Below, piece after piece: positions 888 through 64,000 of a DNA stretch of 64,000 nucleotides. The stretch spans positions 3,109 to 67,108 of IMG/VR virus record IMGVR_UViG_3300037424_001220; one strand, given 5' to 3'. The notes below the pieces were generated by a model that saw only the letters and a program-made list of their open reading frames with translations, had not been told where the DNA came from and searched no databases. Positions within the stretch are counted from its first letter, which is position 1; every line of letters starts with the position of its first letter. The position numbers and the translations under genes were made by a program. The DNA is from a virus. Its lineage: Duplodnaviria; Caudoviricetes.

Positions 888-1781
888 CTATCGACCACTA
901 GCTCTGTTGAACGCGGCGAGAGCCTCGCCGTCCTCTGCGAGGCCGGTTTGCCCGGGCCATGACCAGACCCAGAAGATTGTCCCTGAACGCCCGGGCAGTC
1001 GGCCGAGCTTTGCCCATGTCTCGATCTGCGTCTCGACGGATCCGTTGCGCGACACCGCTCGAAGATCGTAGCCTTGTCCGAGGACAAGGTTCCAGGTTGG
1101 ATGATCAGTGTACGCGGTCACGCACTGCGAGAGCTTCTTGCCTCCGATGCCAGCCCAGTCGTAGCACGATACGCCGAAGTAGTCGACTGCTGGCCGCTCG
1201 TTGCCGACGCGGTCGATGCCCTCGAAGAGGACCGTGCGAAAGCCTGCGTTGCGGACGATCGTGATAGCCTCGTCTCGAAGCTCTCGCGGGATGCCGTTGT
1301 GCAACGGCTCATCCACGACGTAGACCCCAGCGAGTACGCCCGCACGTCGCAGAGGCTCCATCCAAGCGAGCGTCGCTTGCCAGCCTCCGACCGAAGACGC
1401 CACGACTCCGCGCATCTTGAACTGGGAACCCGGACGTTGGCTCTTCTGGCCAATCTCGACACCCCATGTGTCACGAGGATTGCCGAAGACGTGGTGTGCC
1501 GAAACGATCGCGACCTTGCCGTTGGCGAACAGCGCTGACGCGACCACGTTGGCGTCGTCGTCGTAAGTCGGCACGATGAGAACGACGTTGCCGCCGTTGG
1601 CGGCGACCGATGGCGTGTCTGCGCTCTCGGCGAAGGCTCCGAATATCTGCCGGGGTAATGTGGCCAACGGCATCGGTGCGTCGGGAGTGGGTTCGTTGCC
1701 GGGAGTGGTTGGCCCAGAGACGGAGCCACCACAGGCCGAGACGATGACGAGAGCGAGTACGACGAGTCCACGATAGCTCAT
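888..1781 (-). CDS. lipoprotein with a glycoside hydrolase-like (TIM barrel) domain
   Basis: Hydrophobic signal plus lipobox (LVIVSA-CGG), Pro/Thr linker, VYVVDEP acid/base-like motif, GGAGG upstream on the minus strand. Confidence 0.55.
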   Translation of the reverse strand: MSYRGLVVLALVIVSACGGSVSGPTTPGNEPTPDAPMPLATLPRQIFGAFAESADTPSVAANGGNVVLIVPTYDDDANVVASALFANGKVAIVSAHHVFGNPRDTWGVEIGQKSQRPGSQFKMRGVVASSVGGWQATLAWMEPLRRAGVLAGVYVVDEPLHNGIPRELRDEAITIVRNAGFRTVLFEGIDRVGNERPAVDYFGVSCYDWAGIGGKKLSQCVTAYTDHPTWNLVLGQGYDLRAVSRNGSVETQIETWAKLGRLPGRSGTIFWVWSWPGQTGLAEDGEALAAFNRASGR

Positions 1782-1861
1782 TGAATCCTCCTAAGGATCG
1801 AGAGTCCGTGCCGGTGCCCCACGCTAACGTTCCCAAGCGAGTGTGGGACACCGGCGCTGAC

Positions 1862-2185
1862 CTACGACCTCCTTTCTCTCTTGCGTCTCAGCACGCGCAT
1901 CTCGGGTTCCTGGTTCCGGAAGTGCTGACCCTTCTTGCCCGGGTGTGCGTTGATGGACTTGACGGCCTCACCGAGTTCGTGTAGAACGCGGTGCACAGCG
2001 GTCCAGCGGCCCGGTCTCTTCGGGAGACCGAACCGTGCCTCTAGGTGATCCGAGAAGGCACGAGCGTTGCCAAGGACAACGTCACCGTTCTCGGACTCCC
2101 AGATGAACTGACGCTTTCCGTTCTCGACACCGGCATACGAGGTGATGATGGCATCGAGGATCTCCGACCGGTCGAACCACCTCAC
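1862..2185 (-). CDS. hypothetical protein
   Basis: GTG start overlaps the TGA of the upstream gene (VRWFDRSEILDAII...); the ORF-track version is over-extended. Confidence 0.55.
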   Translation of the reverse strand: MRWFDRSEILDAIITSYAGVENGKRQFIWESENGDVVLGNARAFSDHLEARFGLPKRPGRWTAVHRVLHELGEAVKSINAHPGKKGQHFRNQEPEMRVLRRKRERRS

Positions 2186-2589
2186 GGGAGGTTGCTCTTG
2201 CCCGAACTGTAGCGACCGACTTGGGTCAGGCGCTCCGACACCTTGGCGGTGTCCTTCTCGCCCAAGATGAACTCCACGTCGATGACGTCGCCGCTGTTGA
2301 GCCCGTCCCAGTGAGCGGCGACGTAGCGATGAGCCTCGGCCACGGTGCGCGGGGGACGATTCCAGCTGAACGGGTCGTGGCGAATTTCCCCGCCTTCGAG
2401 TCGACCGAACAGCACCAGCGGATACGTGAAGCCGAAGCCCGCTCGACGGAGCAGGTACTCCTCGGCAAGTCCCTGGCCCGTCGCGAGCCATTCGGGCGCG
2501 TTCGGAGTCTCGCTTGGGGCCATGAGGATCCCGAAGCACGGGATGGCGGTGCTGCGGTCGCGTACCTCGAAGAGCTTGATCTGCATCAT
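2182..2589 (-). CDS. hypothetical protein
   Basis: 135 aa ORF with AGAAAGG upstream; codon pattern like neighbouring genes. Confidence 0.6.
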   Translation of the reverse strand: MMQIKLFEVRDRSTAIPCFGILMAPSETPNAPEWLATGQGLAEEYLLRRAGFGFTYPLVLFGRLEGGEIRHDPFSWNRPPRTVAEAHRYVAAHWDGLNSGDVIDVEFILGEKDTAKVSERLTQVGRYSSGKSNLP

Positions 2590-2729
2590 CGATCCTTTCT
2601 GATCTGGCGGATCTCGCGGATGAATCCGCCGAGCCCCGTTCCCAGGTCCTTGAAGAAGCGTCCACCGAACAGGAGCACCACGATCGCCGACACGACGACC
2701 AGTTCAGGTACCCCCAGACCGAATGGCAT

Positions 2730-2996
2730 CTACCTGTCGCTCCTCATGGCGAGGAGAGCGGCCAGCTCCTGCTCCTTACGCTCGATGCTGCGGTCCAGGG
2801 TGACGCGCTTCTCGATGTTGACGCGCTCGGTCTGGCTGAGGGACAGCTCTGCGATGACGAAGCTGCGTAGCCGCTCCATCACTGAGCTCGGGGTCTCCGA
2901 GGGTCCTACCTGTGCGGTGGCCTCGACGTGGACGTGCGAGAACGGCTTGCCCTCGGTCGGACCGTTGGCGCGGAACGAGACGGACGTGATCTTCAT
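2730..2996 (-). CDS. hypothetical protein with C-terminal coiled coil
   Basis: AGGAG ribosome binding site; 88 aa. Confidence 0.6.
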   Translation of the reverse strand: MKITSVSFRANGPTEGKPFSHVHVEATAQVGPSETPSSVMERLRSFVIAELSLSQTERVNIEKRVTLDRSIERKEQELAALLAMRSDR

Positions 2997-3017
2997 GGTT
3001 TCTATCTCCTCTTTTGA

Positions 3018-3248
3018 CTACCGTTCCTTGGGATTCTCCGCCGGGTTGTTGAGACTCCTCACGATCTGCTCCAGCGCCTTGGCCTGTCGCTCTTGGGCAG
3101 CCGCGATCCTCTCGGTGGCGTCGGCGATTCTTTGTTGGACCCCTCTGCCATCATACCCATCAGTCAGTCGCGGGGCCGTGAAGAAAAGCAACGCGATCAT
3201 GATGATGAGGACGATGGACCCCATCACATTCATCAGTACTCGCTTCAT
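3018..3248 (-). CDS. small membrane protein (N-terminal TM helix plus coiled coil)
   Basis: MKRVLMNVMGSIVLIIMIALLFF; AAGGAG upstream. Confidence 0.6.
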   Translation of the reverse strand: MKRVLMNVMGSIVLIIMIALLFFTAPRLTDGYDGRGVQQRIADATERIAAAQERQAKALEQIVRSLNNPAENPKER

Positions 3249-3595
3249 CTCTTCTCCTTGCTTGGATGGACAACGGTTGGCGCGACCTGACGTTGTCGTT
3301 CTTGCGGCACGTGAACGATGCGAACTAGTCTTTCGCGACGGCTCCACCTCCTTGCTTCTCGACAACTGGACACGAAGATGTCGACGTGGCGCCCACGAAC
3401 CAACCCTCCAACGTCGTGGACCATGCGCTCGCCGAAACCCTCGATGTCGATGATGGAACCCAATGGGAGAACGCTGGGGTCGGCTGCGACCGTGAAGCCG
3501 ACGACGGGCTGAGTGCCCGCCTTAGTTGCGTGGCCCCGCTCTACATCGCAGCCGACTGCGTACATCGTGATGACGAAAAGTGTCCCTACGGTCAT
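3245..3595 (-). CDS. 3D (Asp-Asp-Asp) domain protein, peptidoglycan-related
   Basis: VAADPSVLPLGSIIDIEG...VHDVGGLVRGRHVDIFV matches the 3D domain signature. Confidence 0.8.
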   Translation of the reverse strand: MTVGTLFVITMYAVGCDVERGHATKAGTQPVVGFTVAADPSVLPLGSIIDIEGFGERMVHDVGGLVRGRHVDIFVSSCREARRWSRRERLVRIVHVPQERQRQVAPTVVHPSKEKR

Positions 3596-53571: not shown

Positions 53572-53802
53572 ATGCCGAGGACGCGACGACGGCGGGCCAA
53601 CGATCGGAGACGAGAGGCCGAGCAGCGCCGCATTGCAGCTGAAGCTCTTGATCGTGCCCGCCGTGTGGAGAAGGAAGATCTCGGTCGATACGTCAAGGCT
53701 GTCTATCGTTCTCGCGCGGGGGAAACTATTCACGCACGTGATGGCCGCGCCTACATCGTGCAATCGGATGGCTCACTCGTCAGAAAGGAAGGGATGCTGT
53801 GA
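53572..53802 (+). CDS. small basic hypothetical protein
   Basis: Arg-rich N-terminus; stop overlaps the next GTG. Confidence 0.45.
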   Translation: MPRTRRRRANDRRREAEQRRIAAEALDRARRVEKEDLGRYVKAVYRSRAGETIHARDGRAYIVQSDGSLVRKEGML

Positions 53803-55037
53803 CTCCGTACAACCCTACGTTTGATGAGACCGGGATTCGGATCAGTAACGGGAGGCGGCTCCTCTGGATCGGTGACGCCGTGGCCTCAACCGGATTCGCG
53901 CGTTGCACTCATCAGACACTCGATGTACTGCGCAAGACCTGGGACGTGGCTGTTCTCGGACTCAACTACCTGGGTGATCCGCACCGGTATCCGTACCCTA
54001 TCTACCCGGGTTGGCCCGGCGGTGACGGCTTCGGCTTGGGTCGAGTCGAGCACGTGATAGCCAGCGTGAAGCCGGACCTCGTAGTTATCCAGAACGATCC
54101 GTGGAACATCCCCGAGTACATGAAGCGCATCAAGGACATTCCGGTCGTAGCCTCGATGCCGTTGGATGGCAAGAACTGTCAGAGCAAGTGGCTGAACGGT
54201 CTGGCATTGGCCATCTTCTGGACGGAGTTCGGGCTCTTGGAGGCCCGCTCAGGTGGCTATACCGGGCCGGCAGCCGTGGTTCCGCTCGGTGTGGATCTCG
54301 AGATGTACAAGCCCGTTGACCAACTAGAAGCACGGCGTAGGGTAGGACTTCCTGAGGAACTGCTCGACAAGTTCATCATCGGCAACGTGAACCGCAACCA
54401 GCCACGCAAGCGGTTGGACCTGACGATCGAGTACTTCGCGGCGTTCACAGCCCGGGCACAGGCCGAGGACGCTTATCTTTTCCTGTTCGTCGCGCCGACC
54501 GGCGAGATGAGCTACGACGTCGAGCAGTTGATGCACTACTATGGCTTTAAAGGAGCCGGCAAGCGTCTTATCCTGGTTCAGCCCGAGATGGGCTACGGCC
54601 AACGGGAGGAGACGCTATCGTCCATCTACTCGTGCTTCGACGTACAACTCTCTACGACTCAGGGAGAAGGATGGGGCCTGACCACGATGGAGGGGATGGC
54701 CTGTGGGGTGCCTCAGATCTTCCCTGACTGGTCGGCTCTTGGTGAGTGGGCCAAGCCAGCGGGGATGGCCATACCGTGCTACGACACGGCGGTGACCTCG
54801 AACAATCGGATCAACATCCTTGGTGGAATTCCTGATCGGACGCAGACCGTGGAGGCACTTCATAACTGCTACGCCTCTTGGAAGCTGAAGAAGGCCGCCG
54901 ATCACTACGATGTTGCCTCTGTTAGGACCGTTCTTGAACAGCATCGGGAGCTCGGGATCCAACTCGTTGCTGATCCGCGGTACCGGTGGTCCTCGATTGG
55001 TGCATCCTTCGAGATGGCACTTGACACGGTGAGCTAG
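53799..55037 (+). CDS. glycosyltransferase family 4-like (GT-B)
   Basis: STGFAR, GNVNRNQPRKRLD, STTQGEGWGLTTMEGMACGVPQI. Confidence 0.9.
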   Translation: MTPYNPTFDETGIRISNGRRLLWIGDAVASTGFARCTHQTLDVLRKTWDVAVLGLNYLGDPHRYPYPIYPGWPGGDGFGLGRVEHVIASVKPDLVVIQNDPWNIPEYMKRIKDIPVVASMPLDGKNCQSKWLNGLALAIFWTEFGLLEARSGGYTGPAAVVPLGVDLEMYKPVDQLEARRRVGLPEELLDKFIIGNVNRNQPRKRLDLTIEYFAAFTARAQAEDAYLFLFVAPTGEMSYDVEQLMHYYGFKGAGKRLILVQPEMGYGQREETLSSIYSCFDVQLSTTQGEGWGLTTMEGMACGVPQIFPDWSALGEWAKPAGMAIPCYDTAVTSNNRINILGGIPDRTQTVEALHNCYASWKLKKAADHYDVASVRTVLEQHRELGIQLVADPRYRWSSIGASFEMALDTVS

Positions 55038-56773: not shown

Positions 56774-57189
56774 GGCGGGGCGGTGCGCGACGATTTGCGT
56801 ACCGTCTCGCCCTTCATCTGGGATACGCTAATGTAGATACGATGCTGCGTGGAATGACCTCGCAGCAGTTCGTGGAGTGGCAGGTCTTTGGTGACCTTGA
56901 GCCGTTCGCTGCTGAGCGTGACGACTATCGTACCGGTTCGTTAGTCAGGGTCATCGCAAACGCGCATCGTAGTTCGCGTCGACATCCCACACCATACACT
57001 CTTGAGGAGTGCACCCCACGGTTCGGAGATCTTTCGAAGGCACAGAAGCGGCCGGTTCAGTCGTGGCAGATGATGAAGGCGATCGGACAAGCCATGGCTG
57101 AGAGTTCTCAACGGAAGCCAGAACGCATCATTGGCAGGAGACTAACAAGTGGTAAGCATCGGTCAGATCTTCGGGACGATCGATCTTGA
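56768..57189 (+). CDS. tail assembly chaperone T, frameshift extension
   Basis: MTSQQFVEWQVF..LEPF...RDDYR pattern. Confidence 0.75.
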
Positions 57190-60100
57190 CGACAAGTTCT
57201 CCAAGAAGCTGATTGGAGCTGGCGGCAAGCTCGAGAAGTTCGGTCGAGACCTTCTACCGGTGTCTGCCGCGTTAACCGCTGCTGGGGGCGCAGCGGTGTT
57301 CATGGCTGCAAAGTTCGAGACGTCCTTGACTCGTATGGTGTCTCTTGCTGGTGTGAGCCAGAATGAACTGGAGGGTGTGAAGCAGCATATCCTCGATTTG
57401 GCTCCGGCGGCCGGTGTCGGCCCCCAGGCACTCGCGGAAGCTATGATGATGATCTCGTCCACGACGAGTGATACCACTGTTGCTCTCGAGATCCTCGACA
57501 CCGCTGCGAAGGGTACCGCTGCTGGTCTTGGTGAAACCGTGGATGTTGGCAAGGCTTTGACCGCCATTGTCAATTCATATGGTTCTGCGAATATCACCGC
57601 TGCTAGAGCCGCCGACATTCTCACGAAGGCGGTGCAGGATGGCGGCGCTGAGGCGACGGAGTTGGCTCCGGTTCTGGCCAACGTGATTCCTCTGGCCGCG
57701 CAGCTTGGCATCAGTTTCGAACAGGTTGCTGCTAACATCGCTACTGCAACGAAGCTTGGTATCCCGGCAGCGGAGTCCGTTACGCAACTCTCCTCTGTGA
57801 TGACTGCGATGTTGAAGCCAACGAAGGAGGGTGCTGAAGCTCTTGCGAGCATCAACCTGTCATATGGGGAACTGCGCGAGATGGCAGGCAAGGACCTCCA
57901 GGACACCCTGGCTCTTCTTGTCGAACGGTTTGGTGACAACAAGGAGGCTCTCGCTCAGGTCTTCGGTCGGATCGAGGCTCTGCGCAATGTCATGTCAACT
58001 GCCGGGCAGCAGGGAGCAATCTACGCAGAGGAGGTCAAGCGCATCACGGAGTCTCATGGTGCACTGGAGAAGGCATCGAAGGCTGTCGAGGGCACGACCG
58101 CGCATACGTGGGCACAGATGCGAGCCTCGGTGGAGGTGTTGGCCATTAAGCTCGGTGATCAGCTTGCACCGTCATTCGAGAAGGTGATCGAGGCAGCGAA
58201 GCCTCTCATCGAGGTGGCTGTCGGTCTCGTGGCTGAGTTTGCTGAACTACCTCAGCCCGTTCAGACTGGTACCATCGCGGTGCTTGGCCTCGTGGCTGCT
58301 CTGGGGCCGGTGTCCTACGCCGTCGGTACGCTCACCACTGCTTTTGGAACTCTACAGTCAGCGCTTGGTGTCACACTGCTTCCGACGATTGGTTACGTTG
58401 TGGTGGCCATTGGAACGTTCATCATCGTCAAGGAGGTTGCTGACTGGTTGCTCGATCTCTTCCCTGTTGTTCGGGAGATGGCGACGGCTTTCACGGATCT
58501 CGGTCTGAGGATCTTGGGAGTTTCTACGGCGTTGGAGGCATACAACAAGAGTCAGGAAAAGGGTGTCGATGCCACCGCGAACATGACGGAAGAGCAGAAG
58601 CGGGTTCTTGAACACTTCAAGGCACAACAACAGATCGTAAAGGACACCGAGGATGCGTTTGCCGCCGTGGCTACGGTGAACGAGAAGGTGGTCACTGCAA
58701 CGACAAAGACCGGTGCGGCCATGAAGGCTGCCACGACGTTGACCACGGCTGACATCGCGGCAAAGCTGAAGCAGAACGCTACGACAGAGCTTCTTAGTCA
58801 GGCTACCCAGATGCTCGGTGAACCGGTTAAGGACGTAGCAACCGCGACAAAGGTATTGGCTCTTGCGGAGTCAATGAGCGCCGAGGGCATGAAGAAGGCC
58901 GCTCAGGTTGCGAAGGATCACGCTACCGAGATGTTGACCCTCAAGTTCGCGACCGAGGGTCAGGCTTTCCAACTCTCTCAGGCTGACAAGGAACTCAGTC
59001 AGTACTTCTCGACGTTGCGCTCGTTCAAGCTCGTGGATTTCACGAACGATCTGCTCGATGTCAACAAGGCTCTTGGCCAGGGACCGGAACTTGATCCTGC
59101 CGTGATTCAAGGAAAGATCAAGGCGATCAACTTCGCACCGAGCCTTGGGTCTTCTCTCAAGGCATCGTTCTCGGCTGCGGTCAAGGATCTGCCCAATGTC
59201 ATCCTTCAGGCCTTCCAGGGTGGTGGTGATGTGGGCAAGGCGATTGGTGCGCATCTCGGTGGAAGCATCGGCACCACGTTAGGTGAGAAGCTGGGCCCGA
59301 AGCTGGGCGACGTGCTTGGTAAGTCTCTGGGTGGAGCCGTTGGATCCATCATGGGTCCAATCGGTTCCATGGTCGGCTCTATGCTTGGCGACCTCGGAGG
59401 AAAGCTCGTCGGCAAGCTCGGCATCGGTGGGAACAAGGAAATCATGAAGTTGAATGATCTCCGGGACAAGTTCCTTGAGACCGAAGGAGGCTTCGAGGCT
59501 CTTCAGAAGAAGCTCGTTGGGCTAACGGACCAAGACCTCGTCAAGAAGATCTTCGACGCCAAGACGGTCGAGGACTTCAACGGCGCGGTCAGCGAGGTCA
59601 TGGCACTGCTCGACATGCAGACCCAGGCTCAAGAGAAGCTCCAAGGTGCGATCGAGGAGTACGGGATTACCACAGCAGAGCTAGGGCCAAAGTGGGCTCA
59701 GCAGCAAATGGACGAGCGTGCGTTATCACTGCTCGAGAAGTGGAAGCTGCTCGAAGCTGCGGGCGTTGGTGTTGGGACTCTCCTGGAGAAGATGGGTCCC
59801 GACATGGCCGCTTTCGTCCAGGAGTCCATCACCGCCGGCACCGCCATCCCCGAGGCCATGCGTGGTGTCGTGGAGAAGCTGATCGAGAGCGGTCAGTTAC
59901 TCGACGAGAACGGTGAAGCCTACACGTCGGTCGAGGACGCTGGTGTCACCTTTGCCACGACGATGGAGGAGAAGTTCGTCTCACTGCTTGACAAGATCAC
60001 GCAGATGGTGAATGCCCTTCTCGGTATTCCAACTGAGGTCAACACCAACGTCAATGTTCATACTCGCTACACGGATTCGGGTGACAACGCCCGTGATGGC

Positions 60101-60322
60101 GGCGAGGACAACGACCCTGCGACCCCGTTTGCTACCGGTGGCATCGTGACTCAGCCCACTTTTGGACTCGTTGGTGAGGCTGGTCCCGAGGCGGTCATCC
60201 CGTTGGATCAGTTGCCCAGTCTGATGAGTGGCTCTAGCGCTACGTTCAGTCCAGCGCAGATGAGCATGCTTCAGGCTGCCATCACCAGCGCAATTCGTGA
60301 TGCTCTTCTCCAGGCAAGTTGA
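57149..60322 (+). CDS. tape measure protein (TP901-like)
   Basis: 1057 aa, helical; TP901-like core; C-terminal FATGGIVTQPTFGLVGEAGPEAVIPL. Confidence 0.92.
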   Translation: MVSIGQIFGTIDLDDKFSKKLIGAGGKLEKFGRDLLPVSAALTAAGGAAVFMAAKFETSLTRMVSLAGVSQNELEGVKQHILDLAPAAGVGPQALAEAMMMISSTTSDTTVALEILDTAAKGTAAGLGETVDVGKALTAIVNSYGSANITAARAADILTKAVQDGGAEATELAPVLANVIPLAAQLGISFEQVAANIATATKLGIPAAESVTQLSSVMTAMLKPTKEGAEALASINLSYGELREMAGKDLQDTLALLVERFGDNKEALAQVFGRIEALRNVMSTAGQQGAIYAEEVKRITESHGALEKASKAVEGTTAHTWAQMRASVEVLAIKLGDQLAPSFEKVIEAAKPLIEVAVGLVAEFAELPQPVQTGTIAVLGLVAALGPVSYAVGTLTTAFGTLQSALGVTLLPTIGYVVVAIGTFIIVKEVADWLLDLFPVVREMATAFTDLGLRILGVSTALEAYNKSQEKGVDATANMTEEQKRVLEHFKAQQQIVKDTEDAFAAVATVNEKVVTATTKTGAAMKAATTLTTADIAAKLKQNATTELLSQATQMLGEPVKDVATATKVLALAESMSAEGMKKAAQVAKDHATEMLTLKFATEGQAFQLSQADKELSQYFSTLRSFKLVDFTNDLLDVNKALGQGPELDPAVIQGKIKAINFAPSLGSSLKASFSAAVKDLPNVILQAFQGGGDVGKAIGAHLGGSIGTTLGEKLGPKLGDVLGKSLGGAVGSIMGPIGSMVGSMLGDLGGKLVGKLGIGGNKEIMKLNDLRDKFLETEGGFEALQKKLVGLTDQDLVKKIFDAKTVEDFNGAVSEVMALLDMQTQAQEKLQGAIEEYGITTAELGPKWAQQQMDERALSLLEKWKLLEAAGVGVGTLLEKMGPDMAAFVQESITAGTAIPEAMRGVVEKLIESGQLLDENGEAYTSVEDAGVTFATTMEEKFVSLLDKITQMVNALLGIPTEVNTNVNVHTRYTDSGDNARDGGEDNDPATPFATGGIVTQPTFGLVGEAGPEAVIPLDQLPSLMSGSSATFSPAQMSMLQAAITSAIRDALLQAS

Positions 60323-62445
60323 TGAGTCTGTATCCTGAACCCGTGTTCCCAGAGGCTGTTCGAGTCGACGCATTCATGCGTCGGTTCGTTCTGTGGACGG
60401 AAGAGAGCAACGCGATCGTGTACGATCCCTCTACCAGTGTCCCAGGAATCACCCCTGGTGACATCGTAGCCACGGGCACAGCGGGAACGGCCCGATCCGT
60501 TCAGCAGTCGGACAGTGAGTTCGACCGTTGCTACGTTGAATTTGTTGTGACGCAACTCGGTGTTGGCTTCGGTAAGGGTATCGGGTTGAGTCACGTCTAC
60601 ACGGCGGGTTCGTTTACGGCAATCGACTTCGCTCTCAACATCACGGCTGGGGCTGCCTGGAACATCTACGAGAACAACGTTCTCAAGCTCGCCGGTTCGG
60701 CCGACGTGGTTCTCGGTGATGTGTTTCGCATTGAGGCGGCAAATGGTGCGGTGAAGTTCTACCGCAACGGTACCCTACTCTACACGTCTACTACGACTCC
60801 GATCTACCCTCTCTTCGCGTTTGCTGACTGCTTCGCGGTCGACGGCCGATTCGATGACGTGGTGTGGGCACAGTGGATTGAGTTGCCAGACCTGCAACTT
60901 CGCGGCGGAATCACGATCAAGCGTGGGATGCAGGGCACCACGATGCGAGACCGTGTGGCCACCACGGGCACGCTAGCGTTCCAGTTGGACAACAGTGCTG
61001 ACAACTCTGCCGGACTTCTTGGGCTCTACTCCCCGAACAACGCGAATGCTCTTGAGGACTGGCATCTTGGTACACCGGTCCGTTGCATCATCACATACCT
61101 AGCGATCGAGGAACCGGTCTTCGTTGGACAAGTGGAAAATATCATCCCTGAGTCCGGACGGTTTCGAGAACGTAAGGTTGAGGTGTCGTGTGTGGACTGG
61201 ATGAATGAGGCCTCTCTGTCGAAGGTTCGTGGTCTTACGGTTCTAACGAACGTTCGTTCGGATGAGGTTTTCTCGGCCATCCTGTCTGCGGTTGAACGAC
61301 AACCCGCCGCGATCGTTGCTCAGATTGGAGGTGACTCGTATGCCTACGCTCTGGACAACGCTCTGGCAGAGACCTCAGTCATGTCGGAGTTTCAGGCACT
61401 TGCTCAGTCGGAGTTGGGATACGTGTTCGTTCGCAGGGATGGCACCTTGGTCTTTGAGAGCCGGCATCAGAGACCGAATACGTTGGCACTCGCTGAGAGC
61501 TTCGATGACTCTGACATTGATGATGTGAATCCTGGTCGTGGTCGATCGTCAATCATCAACAGAGCTGAGGTTCAGGCACATCCTCGCCGTGTAGACACGG
61601 CTGCTACATCGGTTCTGTTTTCTTTGGCCTCTATTCCCAGAATTGAGAGGCAAACGTCTCAGGTGTTCTCTGCCCCGTACCGCGACCCTGATGCTAGAGC
61701 TACTCGTGTTGGTGGTGTGGAGATGGTTCAACCGGTCCTTACAACGGACTACCTTTTCAACACTTCAGAGGATGGCACCGGCATCGACATCTCCTCGCAG
61801 CTCTCCGTTTCAGCTATCTATTACGCCAATGCTGCGGAGGTGACGGTACTGAACAACGGTCCGATGGACGGGTATCTGCGTAAACTTCAATGCCGTGGGA
61901 AGGGAATCTACTCGTACGAGACGATCAAGGTTCGCGCTGACTCGCAGCCGTCGAAGGATCGATACGGCGAGAGCAGCCTCAACTTCGACATGCCCTATCA
62001 GGCTGATGTAACCATCGCCAAGGACGCGGCTGAGTTCATGGTCAATCAGGCCAAGGACGTTCTTACACCCGTGGACGCTCTTACGTTCATCGCGAATCGT
62101 GAGGATCGTCTCATGCGCGCGGCGCTTCGGTTGGACATCAGTCACAAGGTACATGTTGAAGAGACTGTCATCGGAGGTGAACCGTTTCTACCTGTCGGGG
62201 AGCTGAACCAGTCCGTCTCGGCTCTGGACTTCTTCATCAACTCGGTCTCGATCTTCATTGGTGAGCGTGGCATCATCCGTTGCACCTGGGGCTTAGCTCC
62301 AGGCGATCCCTTCAACTACTGGATTCTTGAGCGTGATGGATTCACTGAACTGGATCAGACAACCCGATTGGCCTACGGAGCTTTTGTTGCAGGGTGGGTC
62401 CTGGACAGTTCGGTCCTTGGAACCGGAACGAGGGTGAATCAATAA
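60319..62445 (+). CDS. distal tail/baseplate hub protein with an N-terminal SPRY/ConA-like domain
   Basis: Position after the tape measure; GDVFRIE...VKFYRNGTLLYTS; hub-like C-terminal part. Confidence 0.65.
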   Translation: MMSLYPEPVFPEAVRVDAFMRRFVLWTEESNAIVYDPSTSVPGITPGDIVATGTAGTARSVQQSDSEFDRCYVEFVVTQLGVGFGKGIGLSHVYTAGSFTAIDFALNITAGAAWNIYENNVLKLAGSADVVLGDVFRIEAANGAVKFYRNGTLLYTSTTTPIYPLFAFADCFAVDGRFDDVVWAQWIELPDLQLRGGITIKRGMQGTTMRDRVATTGTLAFQLDNSADNSAGLLGLYSPNNANALEDWHLGTPVRCIITYLAIEEPVFVGQVENIIPESGRFRERKVEVSCVDWMNEASLSKVRGLTVLTNVRSDEVFSAILSAVERQPAAIVAQIGGDSYAYALDNALAETSVMSEFQALAQSELGYVFVRRDGTLVFESRHQRPNTLALAESFDDSDIDDVNPGRGRSSIINRAEVQAHPRRVDTAATSVLFSLASIPRIERQTSQVFSAPYRDPDARATRVGGVEMVQPVLTTDYLFNTSEDGTGIDISSQLSVSAIYYANAAEVTVLNNGPMDGYLRKLQCRGKGIYSYETIKVRADSQPSKDRYGESSLNFDMPYQADVTIAKDAAEFMVNQAKDVLTPVDALTFIANREDRLMRAALRLDISHKVHVEETVIGGEPFLPVGELNQSVSALDFFINSVSIFIGERGIIRCTWGLAPGDPFNYWILERDGFTELDQTTRLAYGAFVAGWVLDSSVLGTGTRVNQ

Positions 62446-62726
62446 TGGCATGGACTACTCCGCGAACGTGGCTCGCCGGTGAGCTCGTCAAGGAGGGCGA
62501 TCTCAACGCGCAGATTCGTGACAACCTTGGTGTCCTCAAGACTCCACTTACCGATGCCGGCAAGATCATCGCTCTGTCTGCTACGTATGTTGATGACCTC
62601 TCCGGAACCAATCTCACCGGAGTTGCTAAGCTCGGTGCAGCCAACGACTACACCGCAGGACTCCAGAACTTCAACGCTGGAGCGACAACCCGGTTCGTCG
62701 CTCCCATCGGCCCGGACAAGTACTGA
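62445..62726 (+). CDS. small tail protein (WxxPRTW N-terminal module)
   Basis: 93 aa; aligns end to end with the N-terminus of the next gene. Confidence 0.7.
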   Translation: MAWTTPRTWLAGELVKEGDLNAQIRDNLGVLKTPLTDAGKIIALSATYVDDLSGTNLTGVAKLGAANDYTAGLQNFNAGATTRFVAPIGPDKY

Positions 62727-63610
62727 TGGCTTGGACCGCTCCTCGAACGTGGGTCGACGGCGAGATCGTAACCGCCGCGATGATGAATGCCCACGTCCGC
62801 GACAACATGACTGTCCTCAAGACCCCGATCTCCAATCTTGGTCGTCTCACCGGTCTCAGTTCCACGACCGTAGACAACCTCTCCGGGGTCAATCTTACGG
62901 GGCTTGTAGCCACGGGAGCGGGAGTCAACCACACTGCTGGAAGGCAGCGCTTGACCGGCACCTCGCTGATGCGGCTGCCAGTCGGAACGGACAAGTGGTT
63001 TGGTACGAAGGGAGTGGACGCGGCTGGGATGTGGGTGGAAGGAACGGATCTCCACAACATCTCCAGTGACCACACAACCGAGTGGAGGTACCCGGGCACT
63101 CTGGTCGGCTCGGTAGGAGTCGGATCCGCTGGTAACTTCTGGATCGAAGGCAGCTTCGCACACTACATTGATGCCAGTGGAGACGAGCGCATCATCGATT
63201 CCACGGCCACCGGGCATAGCGACTCGAACTCGTCACTAGGAACTCTTTGGGTTGAGACGTACGTACATTGGATTCGTGAAACTTCCGTCACCGAGCAGGT
63301 CGGCCACTCGGATGTTACTCATGGGGACCACAACGATCACGCGGACCACACGGACCACAACGACACCGGGCCACACGGGGATAGCAGTGTGCACACGGAC
63401 ACGGGTTCGCCGCACAACGACAGCCCGGGAACTCATATCGATCATACTGACGTTGGACACGCTGACGTTCCGGCTGTTCACTCGGACCACACAGACCACA
63501 CGGACCACGACGATCACACGGATTCCGGAGCACATGGGGATGTCACCTCACATTCTGATTCCACTCCTCACACTGACATAGCGGCTGACTCGCGACCGAT
63601 TGTTGTATGA
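62726..63610 (+). CDS. tail-associated protein with a C-terminal His-x-Asp repeat region
   Basis: WxxPRTW module; 20 HxD motifs in residues 194-284. Confidence 0.8.
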   Translation: MAWTAPRTWVDGEIVTAAMMNAHVRDNMTVLKTPISNLGRLTGLSSTTVDNLSGVNLTGLVATGAGVNHTAGRQRLTGTSLMRLPVGTDKWFGTKGVDAAGMWVEGTDLHNISSDHTTEWRYPGTLVGSVGVGSAGNFWIEGSFAHYIDASGDERIIDSTATGHSDSNSSLGTLWVETYVHWIRETSVTEQVGHSDVTHGDHNDHADHTDHNDTGPHGDSSVHTDTGSPHNDSPGTHIDHTDVGHADVPAVHSDHTDHTDHDDHTDSGAHGDVTSHSDSTPHTDIAADSRPIVV

Positions 63611-64000
63611 GCGTCGAGGTCAATCTTGTTGGTCGTCGCTGCGGTTCCAACAATGGGGCGCTCTCGTGTGTCTACTGCTATCTTCCTCTCAAGGCGCGAG
63701 AGGAGGAGCAGCTTCAGCCCGTCAACCATGAGGCAATCCATCTGGCTGTTGAGGCTGAGAATCCACGTAAGGGAGAGGGGTTCCAGTTGTTTGGAGGCGA
63801 ACCGTTGCTGGCGCGTCTCGAGGACCTGGAACGCATCTTCGCCTGGGGTCTTGAGAAGTACGGCAAGAACGGTATCCAGACGAGTGGACGCCCCATCACC
63901 GAGAAACATCTTGAGCTCTTCAAGAAGTATAAGGTCAACGTCGGCTTCTCCATCGACGGACCTGAAGAGTTGAACGATGCTCGATGGGCTGGGTCTACGA
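63607..64000 (+). CDS. radical SAM enzyme (anSME/SPASM peptide-maturase-like), truncated by the window end; not in the ORF track
   Basis: Manual translation: MSVEVNLVGRRCGSNNGALSCVYCYL...FQLFGGEPLL...GIQTSG...VGFSIDGPEELNDAR; ATGA overlap with the HxD gene. Confidence 0.85.
   Translation, partial: MSVEVNLVGRRCGSNNGALSCVYCYLPLKAREEEQLQPVNHEAIHLAVEAENPRKGEGFQLFGGEPLLARLEDLERIFAWGLEKYGKNGIQTSGRPITEKHLELFKKYKVNVGFSIDGPEELNDARWAGST

Follow-up and report, generated by a model that had tools for sequence, protein, structure and literature searches.

A His-x-Asp array gene coupled to a radical SAM/SPASM enzyme gene

We analysed a 64,000-nucleotide stretch of viral DNA (the window), which corresponds to positions 3109-67108 of the 67,108-bp IMG/VR virus record IMGVR_UViG_3300037424_001220, estimated to be 93% complete. 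At the end of the window, two overlapping genes encode a 294-aa tail protein with a dense array of His-x-Asp (HxD) motifs and a radical S-adenosylmethionine (SAM) enzyme of the SPASM type, and a third gene, encoding a DUF483-methyltransferase protein, lies near the start of the record. Both window genes, like the three genes before them, are on the + strand. Elsewhere, the window has genes for a portal protein, a DNA polymerase of family A and a SNF2 helicase; the source is a tailed phage, and the three-gene cassette lies within its tail-tip and fibre block.

The array gene (62726..63610) belongs to no Pfam, NCBIfam or PHROG family. From residue 194 to residue 284 (63305..63577), each of the 20 His is followed by Asp two positions on, as had been pointed out in the original prediction, which was made from the letters of the window; this stretch is the proposed substrate. 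When the tail was shuffled 20,000 times with its composition preserved, the number of HxD motifs averaged 4.3 and peaked at 12, and no shuffle reached 20. A 21st motif stands at residue 164. The middle residue of the motifs is small (T7, S4, G3, N3, A2), motifs within the array are spaced by 3, 5, 6 or 7 residues, and the protein has no Cys. Across the whole 67-kb genome, only two open reading frames (ORFs) hold four or more HxD motifs, namely those of the array protein and of the radical SAM enzyme.

We found ~90 full-length homologs of the array protein, none of which is named. The alignment of 29 of them runs over three GSxWVEG..hYIDasG.eR repeats, which form the carrier domain (residues ~84-193; 62975..63304), then over the array and finally over a conserved ..RP..V C-terminus with an invariant Pro291 (here ..ADSRPIVV, which with the stop codon spans 63578..63610). 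In a structural model, the carrier domain (residues ~85-200) was confident and all-beta (predicted local distance difference test, pLDDT, ~90), and the last ten residues formed a confident strand (pLDDT 93) packing back onto it. The array itself was modelled with low confidence (pLDDT ~45). As modelled, it looks like a long loop held at its two ends. In a fold search of the PDB with this model, the only matches were weak ones with lectins of the beta-prism II type (Z 4.6 at best), from which we claim no fold, and a search of BFVD gave one significant match, an unnamed 342-aa viral protein.

The stop codon of the array gene (TGA, 63608-63610) and the start codon of the enzyme gene (ATG, 63607) form an ATGA overlap. 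Because the assembly end splits the enzyme gene, the window holds its first 131 codons (63607..64000). By sequence comparison, positions 24-152 of the record repeat its final 129 nt with a single mismatch. The record thus overlaps itself circularly, and the gene resumes near the record start (G000:C1:153-1066). The first 28 nt of the record are an inverted copy of nearby sequence and look like an assembly artefact, small and confined to the end. The joined frame is open and encodes 435 aa. It carries FGGEPLL, IQTSG and SIDGPEELNDAR, and the 131 residues in the window scored 38.4 bits with Pfam Radical_SAM (PF04055; cut-off 29.5). Thus, the gene overlap, the three motifs and the radical SAM assignment that had been put forward initially all hold.

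In the joined enzyme, Cys12, Cys21 and Cys24 form a CX8CX2C motif (CGSNNGALSCVYC) instead of the usual CX3CX2C, and these positions are invariant in 33 homologs. We noticed that a close relative (P0007) has the same five-residue insertion in its radical SAM cluster motif. The original prediction had suggested recovering the rest of the gene and looking for a SPASM domain, and this domain was found: taking as criterion the seven-Cys pattern CX9-15GX4C ... CX2CX5CX3C ... C of two auxiliary clusters, we observed C263-X14-G-X4-C283, C318-X2-C321-X5-C327-X3-C331 and C347, all invariant in the 33-homolog alignment, with a further Cys at position 258 listed alongside this set. The SPASM profile TIGR04085 scored 20 bits, its cut-off being 27. 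The enzyme C-terminus reads HDDHDDHDDHND, that is, an HxD tail of its own. A database search returned 840 relatives at E up to 1e-10, and ~85% of the best 120 homologs end in a short HxD tail of their own, with the consensus HGDxPHGDxHGDHTD. In the source phage clade, this tail is followed by a conserved DL..AL..GGE.V motif, and the tail is missing from many bacterial enzyme forms.

The best NCBIfam models for the enzyme were those of the cyclophane-forming AmcB, DynA, YhhB and GrrM/OscB, together with anSME. With a profile of 33 homologs, the nearest solved structures were anSME (4K36, 8e-19) and the triceptide synthase ChlB (9GM3, 5e-15). This is in line with the likeness to peptide maturases read earlier from the window. 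The models for AmcB (NF041718), YhhB (NF041707), GrrM/OscB (TIGR04261), XyeB (TIGR04496), FxsB (TIGR04269) and DynA (NF041298) gave at best 57-76 bits against cut-offs of 310-450, which places the enzyme outside these families. Judging from its sequence, we class it as a SPASM-type protein or peptide maturase of a family without a curated model.

A possibility was that the enzyme is anSME-like and acts on some other protein, either converting Ser or Cys to formylglycine or making thioether links. It shares with anSME the radical SAM/SPASM architecture of a protein-modifying enzyme, a similar size and, as far as Pfam shows, the lack of a RiPP recognition element (RRE; RiPP, ribosomally synthesised and post-translationally modified peptide), and anSME is its best solved match and one of its top NCBIfam matches. 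Yet, the enzyme scored only 40-72 bits against the anSME cut-off of 349 (TIGR03942), and the neighbouring substrate has no sulfatase motif (C/S-x-P-x-R) and no Cys, the latter excluding thioether chemistry on the array protein itself. Moreover, among the genes near the enzyme that are annotated or marked by Pfam, we saw none for a sulfatase. We consider an anSME-like activity very improbable.

The third protein of the cassette, of 451 aa, was modelled with confidence (pLDDT 87.8). Its residues 274-447 form a class I SAM methyltransferase domain (VIA Z 13-15, rmsd, root-mean-square deviation, ~3 Å over ~160 residues; Foldseek E 1e-7), in which D317, G319 and G321 are invariant, in keeping with the Rossmann-like fold and GxGxG SAM-binding motif that mark this class. 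By sequence, this domain is nearest to BpumL and BamL, the N-methyltransferases of the RiPP plantazolicin (1e-8). Residues 1-265 are DUF483-like, with invariant Cys-Cys, Asp, Arg, His and Cys-x3-Cys positions. The genome's own protein scored 15.4 bits with DUF483 (PF04467; cut-off 25), and 27 of 39 aligned homologs matched this Pfam family at E up to 0.01 (best 3e-6). Whole-model fold searches gave no structural match for the DUF483 part, but their lists were filled by methyltransferases, so that this domain was barely probed; by sequence profile, it matched nothing in the PDB. All parts of the original prediction that computation could address were borne out, and its array protein and enzyme both stand as parts of the system, whereas two conserved elements, this partner and the enzyme's own HxD tail, had been overlooked.

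Gene linkage in viruses and cells and location of the array in the tail

We scanned IMG/VR with the enzyme profile alone, which returned 55 viral loci; a single enzyme sequence as query found one distant locus only, and alignment-based scans were needed. In 52 of the 55 loci, the enzyme gene was immediately preceded on its own strand by an ORF with 12-93 HxD motifs, the end of which mostly coincides with the enzyme start, and one of the three loci without an upstream array is cut. A DUF483 protein was encoded downstream in 51 of 57 viral loci, the remaining ones being cut.

A scan of cellular genomes, one per species, returned more than 400 relatives, from which 80 bacterial and archaeal loci were kept (Acidobacteriota, Chloroflexota, Actinomycetota, Planctomycetota, Cyanobacteria, Bacillota, Bacteroidota, Myxococcota and others). 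The enzyme and DUF483 were adjacent or fused in 78 of them, and fused radical SAM-DUF483 proteins of ~650-900 aa occur in many bacteria (13 loci recorded). Because of these bacterial fusions, we assume that DUF483 and the enzyme function jointly. An HxD-rich ORF was present before the enzyme or after DUF483 in ~61 of the 80 loci, and several of the others encode small peptides with 3-7 HxD motifs. The small bacterial HxD peptides matched no NCBIfam family.

Sixteen of 29 small bacterial array proteins carry a twin-arginine translocation (TAT)-type signal, suggesting, as far as such signals can be read from sequence, export after maturation in the cytoplasm. The start F[ST]RRxLLxAGW... is frequent in bacterial HxD-array proteins (ten loci) and is also seen on short HxD peptides beside the enzyme (four loci, the cyanobacterial locus L189 among them). 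In a Limnochordales prophage (L010:6453-6989), we noticed an array rich in Tyr-x-Asp beside His-x-Asp, as well as a second, shorter DUF483-like protein after a separate methyltransferase gene.

We also performed the reverse test, with 29 array-protein homologs on contigs of at least 10 kb. Seventeen lie on a contig of the same length as that of an enzyme match and, of four others looked up, three have the enzyme adjoining. This test replaced an IMG/VR DNA scan for five consecutive HxD codon triplets, which we discarded: its listed matches were mostly out-of-frame collagen-like or simple repeats. Collectively, the pairing of array and enzyme is near-universal in both directions. The original prediction had suggested testing whether HxD repeats and radical SAM genes co-occur in phage genomes, and array homologs usually lacking the adjacent enzyme, which would have spoken against its reading, were not what we observed.

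The tail-tip gene block opens with the tape measure gene (57149..60322; Pfam PhageMin_Tail, E 1.7e-23, 84 bits), followed by the gene of a 708-aa tail protein (60319..62445; a weak PHROG virion structural protein match) and then by those of fibre-like paralogs. One of these paralogs, a 93-aa protein (62445..62726; its ORF is listed from 62394), is 49% identical to the array protein over its own length. The 93-, 294- and 193-aa proteins have in common an N-terminal module, MAWTxPRTW...RDNxxVLKT, which in the 193-aa protein (G000:C1:2765-3346) reads MAWTTPRTW...RDNLNVLKT. Past this module the three proteins diverge, and from their sequences they look like alternative fibres on one attachment site. 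In 11 phages, arrays are found at the C-terminus of homologs of the 708-aa tail protein (723-1476 aa; phmmer E 1e-67 to 1e-87, residues 186-691), and they begin where the 708-aa protein ends. Other arrays sit on unrelated carriers of 640-1025 aa. We call the array protein a tail protein because of these fusions and of the N-terminal module common to the three fibre-like paralogs. The array itself appears to be a portable tail-protein module, and the fusions support the earlier idea that the substrate is a tail protein.

Beyond the window, record positions 1032-3346 hold three genes, which encode the 451-aa protein, a 128-aa Cys-rich protein and the 193-aa protein. The 128-aa protein (zinc-ribbon-like; G000:C1:2375-2761) comes directly after the DUF483-methyltransferase gene. 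We considered it as a core part of the cassette and dropped it, because its conservation is limited to the closest clade of phages and to two prophage copies from Vicinamibacteria. No family was found for the 93-, 128- and 193-aa neighbours in PHROGs, Pfam or NCBIfam. Between the head/tail genes and the tape measure gene, the window also holds a gene for a GT4-type glycosyltransferase (53799-55037; Pfam Glycos_transf_1 and GT4-conflict, ~E 1e-5 to 1e-6), which may have a role in virion glycosylation or in a conflict system.

Among cultured phages, tblastn detected the enzyme in the Thermus phages phiLo, phiMa and Cumys only (44-45% identity), and the array protein matched phiMa. In phiMa and Cumys, baseplate genes and a tail collar fibre gene are followed by the genes of a 343-aa protein, the radical SAM protein and the DUF483 protein, in this order, and the 343-aa protein has 53-54 HxD motifs. 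In the jumbo phage phiLo, two IS605 OrfB transposase fragments immediately precede the radical SAM and methyltransferase genes, and the annotation has no HxD protein upstream of the radical SAM gene; the phiLo copy of the cassette was possibly relocated or disrupted. Kirsanova et al. 2024 (Viruses 16:1410, PMC11437467) described in Cumys and phiMa an 'rSAM module' made of a radical SAM protein and two further proteins without a known function, one of them a DUF483 protein, and found it in prophages too. The same radical SAM, DUF483 and third proteins are encoded together, in the same order, in the source phage, whose enzyme is 42-45% identical to those of Cumys and phiMa. There are two differences: the source phage has DUF483 fused to a methyltransferase as well as an additional fibre module at the N-terminus of the array protein. 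The gene module was thus previously known from Thermus phages, but without its His-x-Asp arrays having been noted: the paper does not mention His repeats (0 matches for 'histidine'). Full-text literature searches gave nothing else relevant on HxD repeats, on triceptides with phage or on DUF483.

The same paper proposed DNA modification for the module, which raises the possibility that the radical SAM-DUF483 pair modifies phage DNA or a nucleotide and that the HxD protein is a mere neighbour. Radical SAM/DUF483 homologs do lie beside deazapurine DNA-modification genes in some cyanobacteria, and DUF483 is found fused to methyltransferase or radical SAM domains (PMC11437467). However, the pair is located among tail genes and not replication genes. 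Whether in viruses or in cells, it also occurs in linkage with HxD arrays or small HxD peptides, the cyanobacterial locus L189 included, and the relatives of the enzyme act on peptides and proteins. The study that proposed DNA modification does not mention the His repeats, and we give very little credence to a role of the pair in DNA or nucleotide modification.

The aromatic-x-Asp rule and known maturation systems

Motif statistics were computed over 100 non-identical arrays, totalling 16,661 residues. In these, 96.2% of 2989 His were followed by x-Asp. The same was true of 25.8% of Tyr, 21.4% of Phe and 14.1% of Trp, as compared with 2.3% of non-aromatic residues (odds ratios of 15, 12 and 7, respectively, versus non-aromatic), although the arrays are related sequences, so that these statistics and their p-values overstate independence. 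The commonest spacing between motifs was five residues, and His accounts for 18% of the array and Asp for 20%. The residues that take the place of His in front of x-Asp are Tyr, Phe and Trp only; therefore, the rule inside the arrays is aromatic-x-Asp, which is the form of a triceptide motif.

In other phage fibres and spikes (T4 gp37, the P2 and phi92 spikes), HxH motifs hold iron. The HxD array might likewise be mainly a metal-binding element in a trimeric fibre, in which the His and Asp of three chains would hold a row of ions, while the enzyme would perform some other modification of Asp or His (epimerisation, hydroxylation-type or methylthio-type) or load the metal. The high His and Asp content of the array would fit such a role, and so would its predicted disorder when modelled alone. 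The TAT-type signals of the bacterial proteins are typical of proteins exported folded or with cofactors, the enzyme's HxD tail could dock on the array through shared metal ions, and the enzyme falls below the threshold of every cyclophane family. Against this, Phe and Trp, which are not metal ligands, replace His in register 7-12 times more often than non-aromatic residues do, and therefore the pattern argues against a purely metal-binding repeat. In addition, the nearest models are crosslinking maturases, and the strict linkage with a radical SAM enzyme is left unaccounted for by metal binding alone. Thus, we regard a mainly metal-binding array as unlikely, though clearly a stronger contender than the anSME and DNA-modification explanations. 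Metal binding and ring formation are, for that matter, compatible, as a His-Asp ring can leave ligand atoms free.

A modification that forms rings would relate the cassette to the triceptide systems. The triceptide synthases HtkB, HaaB and YhhB join C2 of His to the beta-carbon of the third residue, and triceptide synthases are known to form such links on HxK, HAA and HNR motifs (PMC11499958). These synthases, together with ChlB, XyeB, GrrM/OscB and AmcB, have the same radical SAM plus SPASM architecture as the enzyme studied here, and they too act on a repeated aromatic-x-X substrate encoded beside the enzyme, with His accepted as the first residue (PMC11499958). Their models are the best-scoring curated ones, and ChlB is one of the two best solved relatives. 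In contrast, their substrate is a short leader-core peptide, whereas here it would be a 294-aa (elsewhere up to 1476-aa) tail or TAT-exported protein, with up to 93 motifs per substrate and a third residue that is nearly always Asp. The cassette further differs in its obligatory DUF483 partner and in the HxD tail of the enzyme, and its crosslink is a predicted one.

The His-Xaa-Ser system (TIGR03978 and relatives) is similar in that a His-x-X repeat protein, HxsA, is encoded beside a dedicated radical SAM enzyme. However, it has two radical SAM enzymes, HxsB and HxsC, besides HxsD, as compared with a single one here; its third residue is Ser and not Asp; and the phage tail context is particular to the present case. 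The HxsB model scored 27 bits on our enzyme, far from its cut-off of 370, and NCBIfam gave no HxsC or HxsD match.

Proposed maturation of the tail array and its meaning

We propose that the three genes form a maturation cassette in the tail-tip block, in which the radical SAM enzyme modifies the tail array, most likely by installing His-to-Asp rings, with the DUF483-methyltransferase protein as its partner. We favour this reading with fair, though by no means full, confidence. The substrate would be the 294-aa tail protein, made of its N-terminal module, the three-repeat beta domain, the loop of 20 motifs and the C-terminal strand that ties the loop down. The translationally coupled radical SAM/SPASM enzyme would modify the motifs in the host cytoplasm, ahead of tail assembly. 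The most likely reaction, of the triceptide type, would be hydrogen abstraction at the Asp beta-carbon followed by formation of a carbon-carbon bond to C2 of His, and each motif would thereby gain one small ring and lose 2 Da. DUF483 would act with the enzyme as a partner or scaffold, and the C-terminal methyltransferase domain of the 451-aa protein would add a methyl group. As for the HxD tail of the enzyme, it may copy the substrate for docking or priming, or may contribute to a shared metal site. The TAT-type signals on many bacterial arrays fit maturation in the cytoplasm before export. The gain for the phage may be a rigid tip that withstands proteases and heat and perhaps holds metal. 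The anatomy, the class of the enzyme, the gene linkage, the aromatic-x-Asp rule and the tail position of the arrays are established by our data, whereas the action of the enzyme on the array, the kind of bond, the parts played by DUF483, the methyltransferase and the HxD tail of the enzyme, and the advantage to the phage are inferred.

Several observations weigh against this proposal. With scores of 40-76 bits, the enzyme stays far from the curated cut-offs (300-650); it is in none of the named cyclophane families and is about equally close to anSME and to ChlB. Neither the enzyme nor its partner gave an RRE or PqqD match in Pfam (E up to 0.1), a domain that the original prediction had proposed to look for in the full gene. 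In a strict RiPP pathway, an RRE/PqqD-like domain recognises a leader peptide and a small peptide is released. The enzyme lacks an N-terminal extension, and we saw no protease in the cassette; a recognition domain beyond Pfam detection may be present, for instance in the DUF483 domain or in the 60 residues that follow SPASM. The proposal does not by itself explain the enzyme's HxD tail. As His and Asp both rank among the classic metal ligands, the repeat might serve metal binding and the enzyme some other chemistry. Lastly, the linkage has exceptions: one close array homolog (L265:4001-5005; 335 aa, 28 HxD) on a 118-kb contig has no radical SAM or DUF483 gene within 4 kb on either side, and another locus (L266) has the enzyme and no DUF483 gene.

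A bolder version of the ring-forming proposal is that many phage lineages use RiPP-type radical chemistry on their virions. The radical SAM/SPASM enzyme and DUF483 would turn a loop of dozens of aromatic-x-Asp triplets at the tail tip into a chain of small carbon-carbon-bridged rings, a rigid element with its imidazole and carboxylate groups arranged in advance that binds metal ions or a component of the host surface, the HxD tail of the enzyme would be a built-in docking or priming copy, and bacteria would do likewise on TAT-exported arrays. We put this forward tentatively, as a conjecture that we would not yet bet on.

Radical SAM maturases are known for small peptide natural products, and here an enzyme of the same kind is tied to a structural protein of a virus. 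Since the trio recurs in many unrelated phages and bacteria, chemical modification of part of the virus particle after translation is probable. We find the cassette in Thermus phages, in numerous uncultured phages from soil and water and in prophages from at least 10 phyla, and its presence in the cultivable Thermus phages phiMa, Cumys and phiLo makes the question directly testable. If the proposed rings exist, they would represent the first carbon-carbon crosslink that an enzyme installs in a virus particle, and the arrays would represent a new and very large substrate class for cyclophane synthases. A modification of this kind would assign a role to DUF483 and would provide a protein-sized, highly repetitive cyclophane substrate, of interest for biomaterials and metal binding. 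Should it be real, it would add a new layer to the construction and hardening of phage tails, especially in phages of hot springs.

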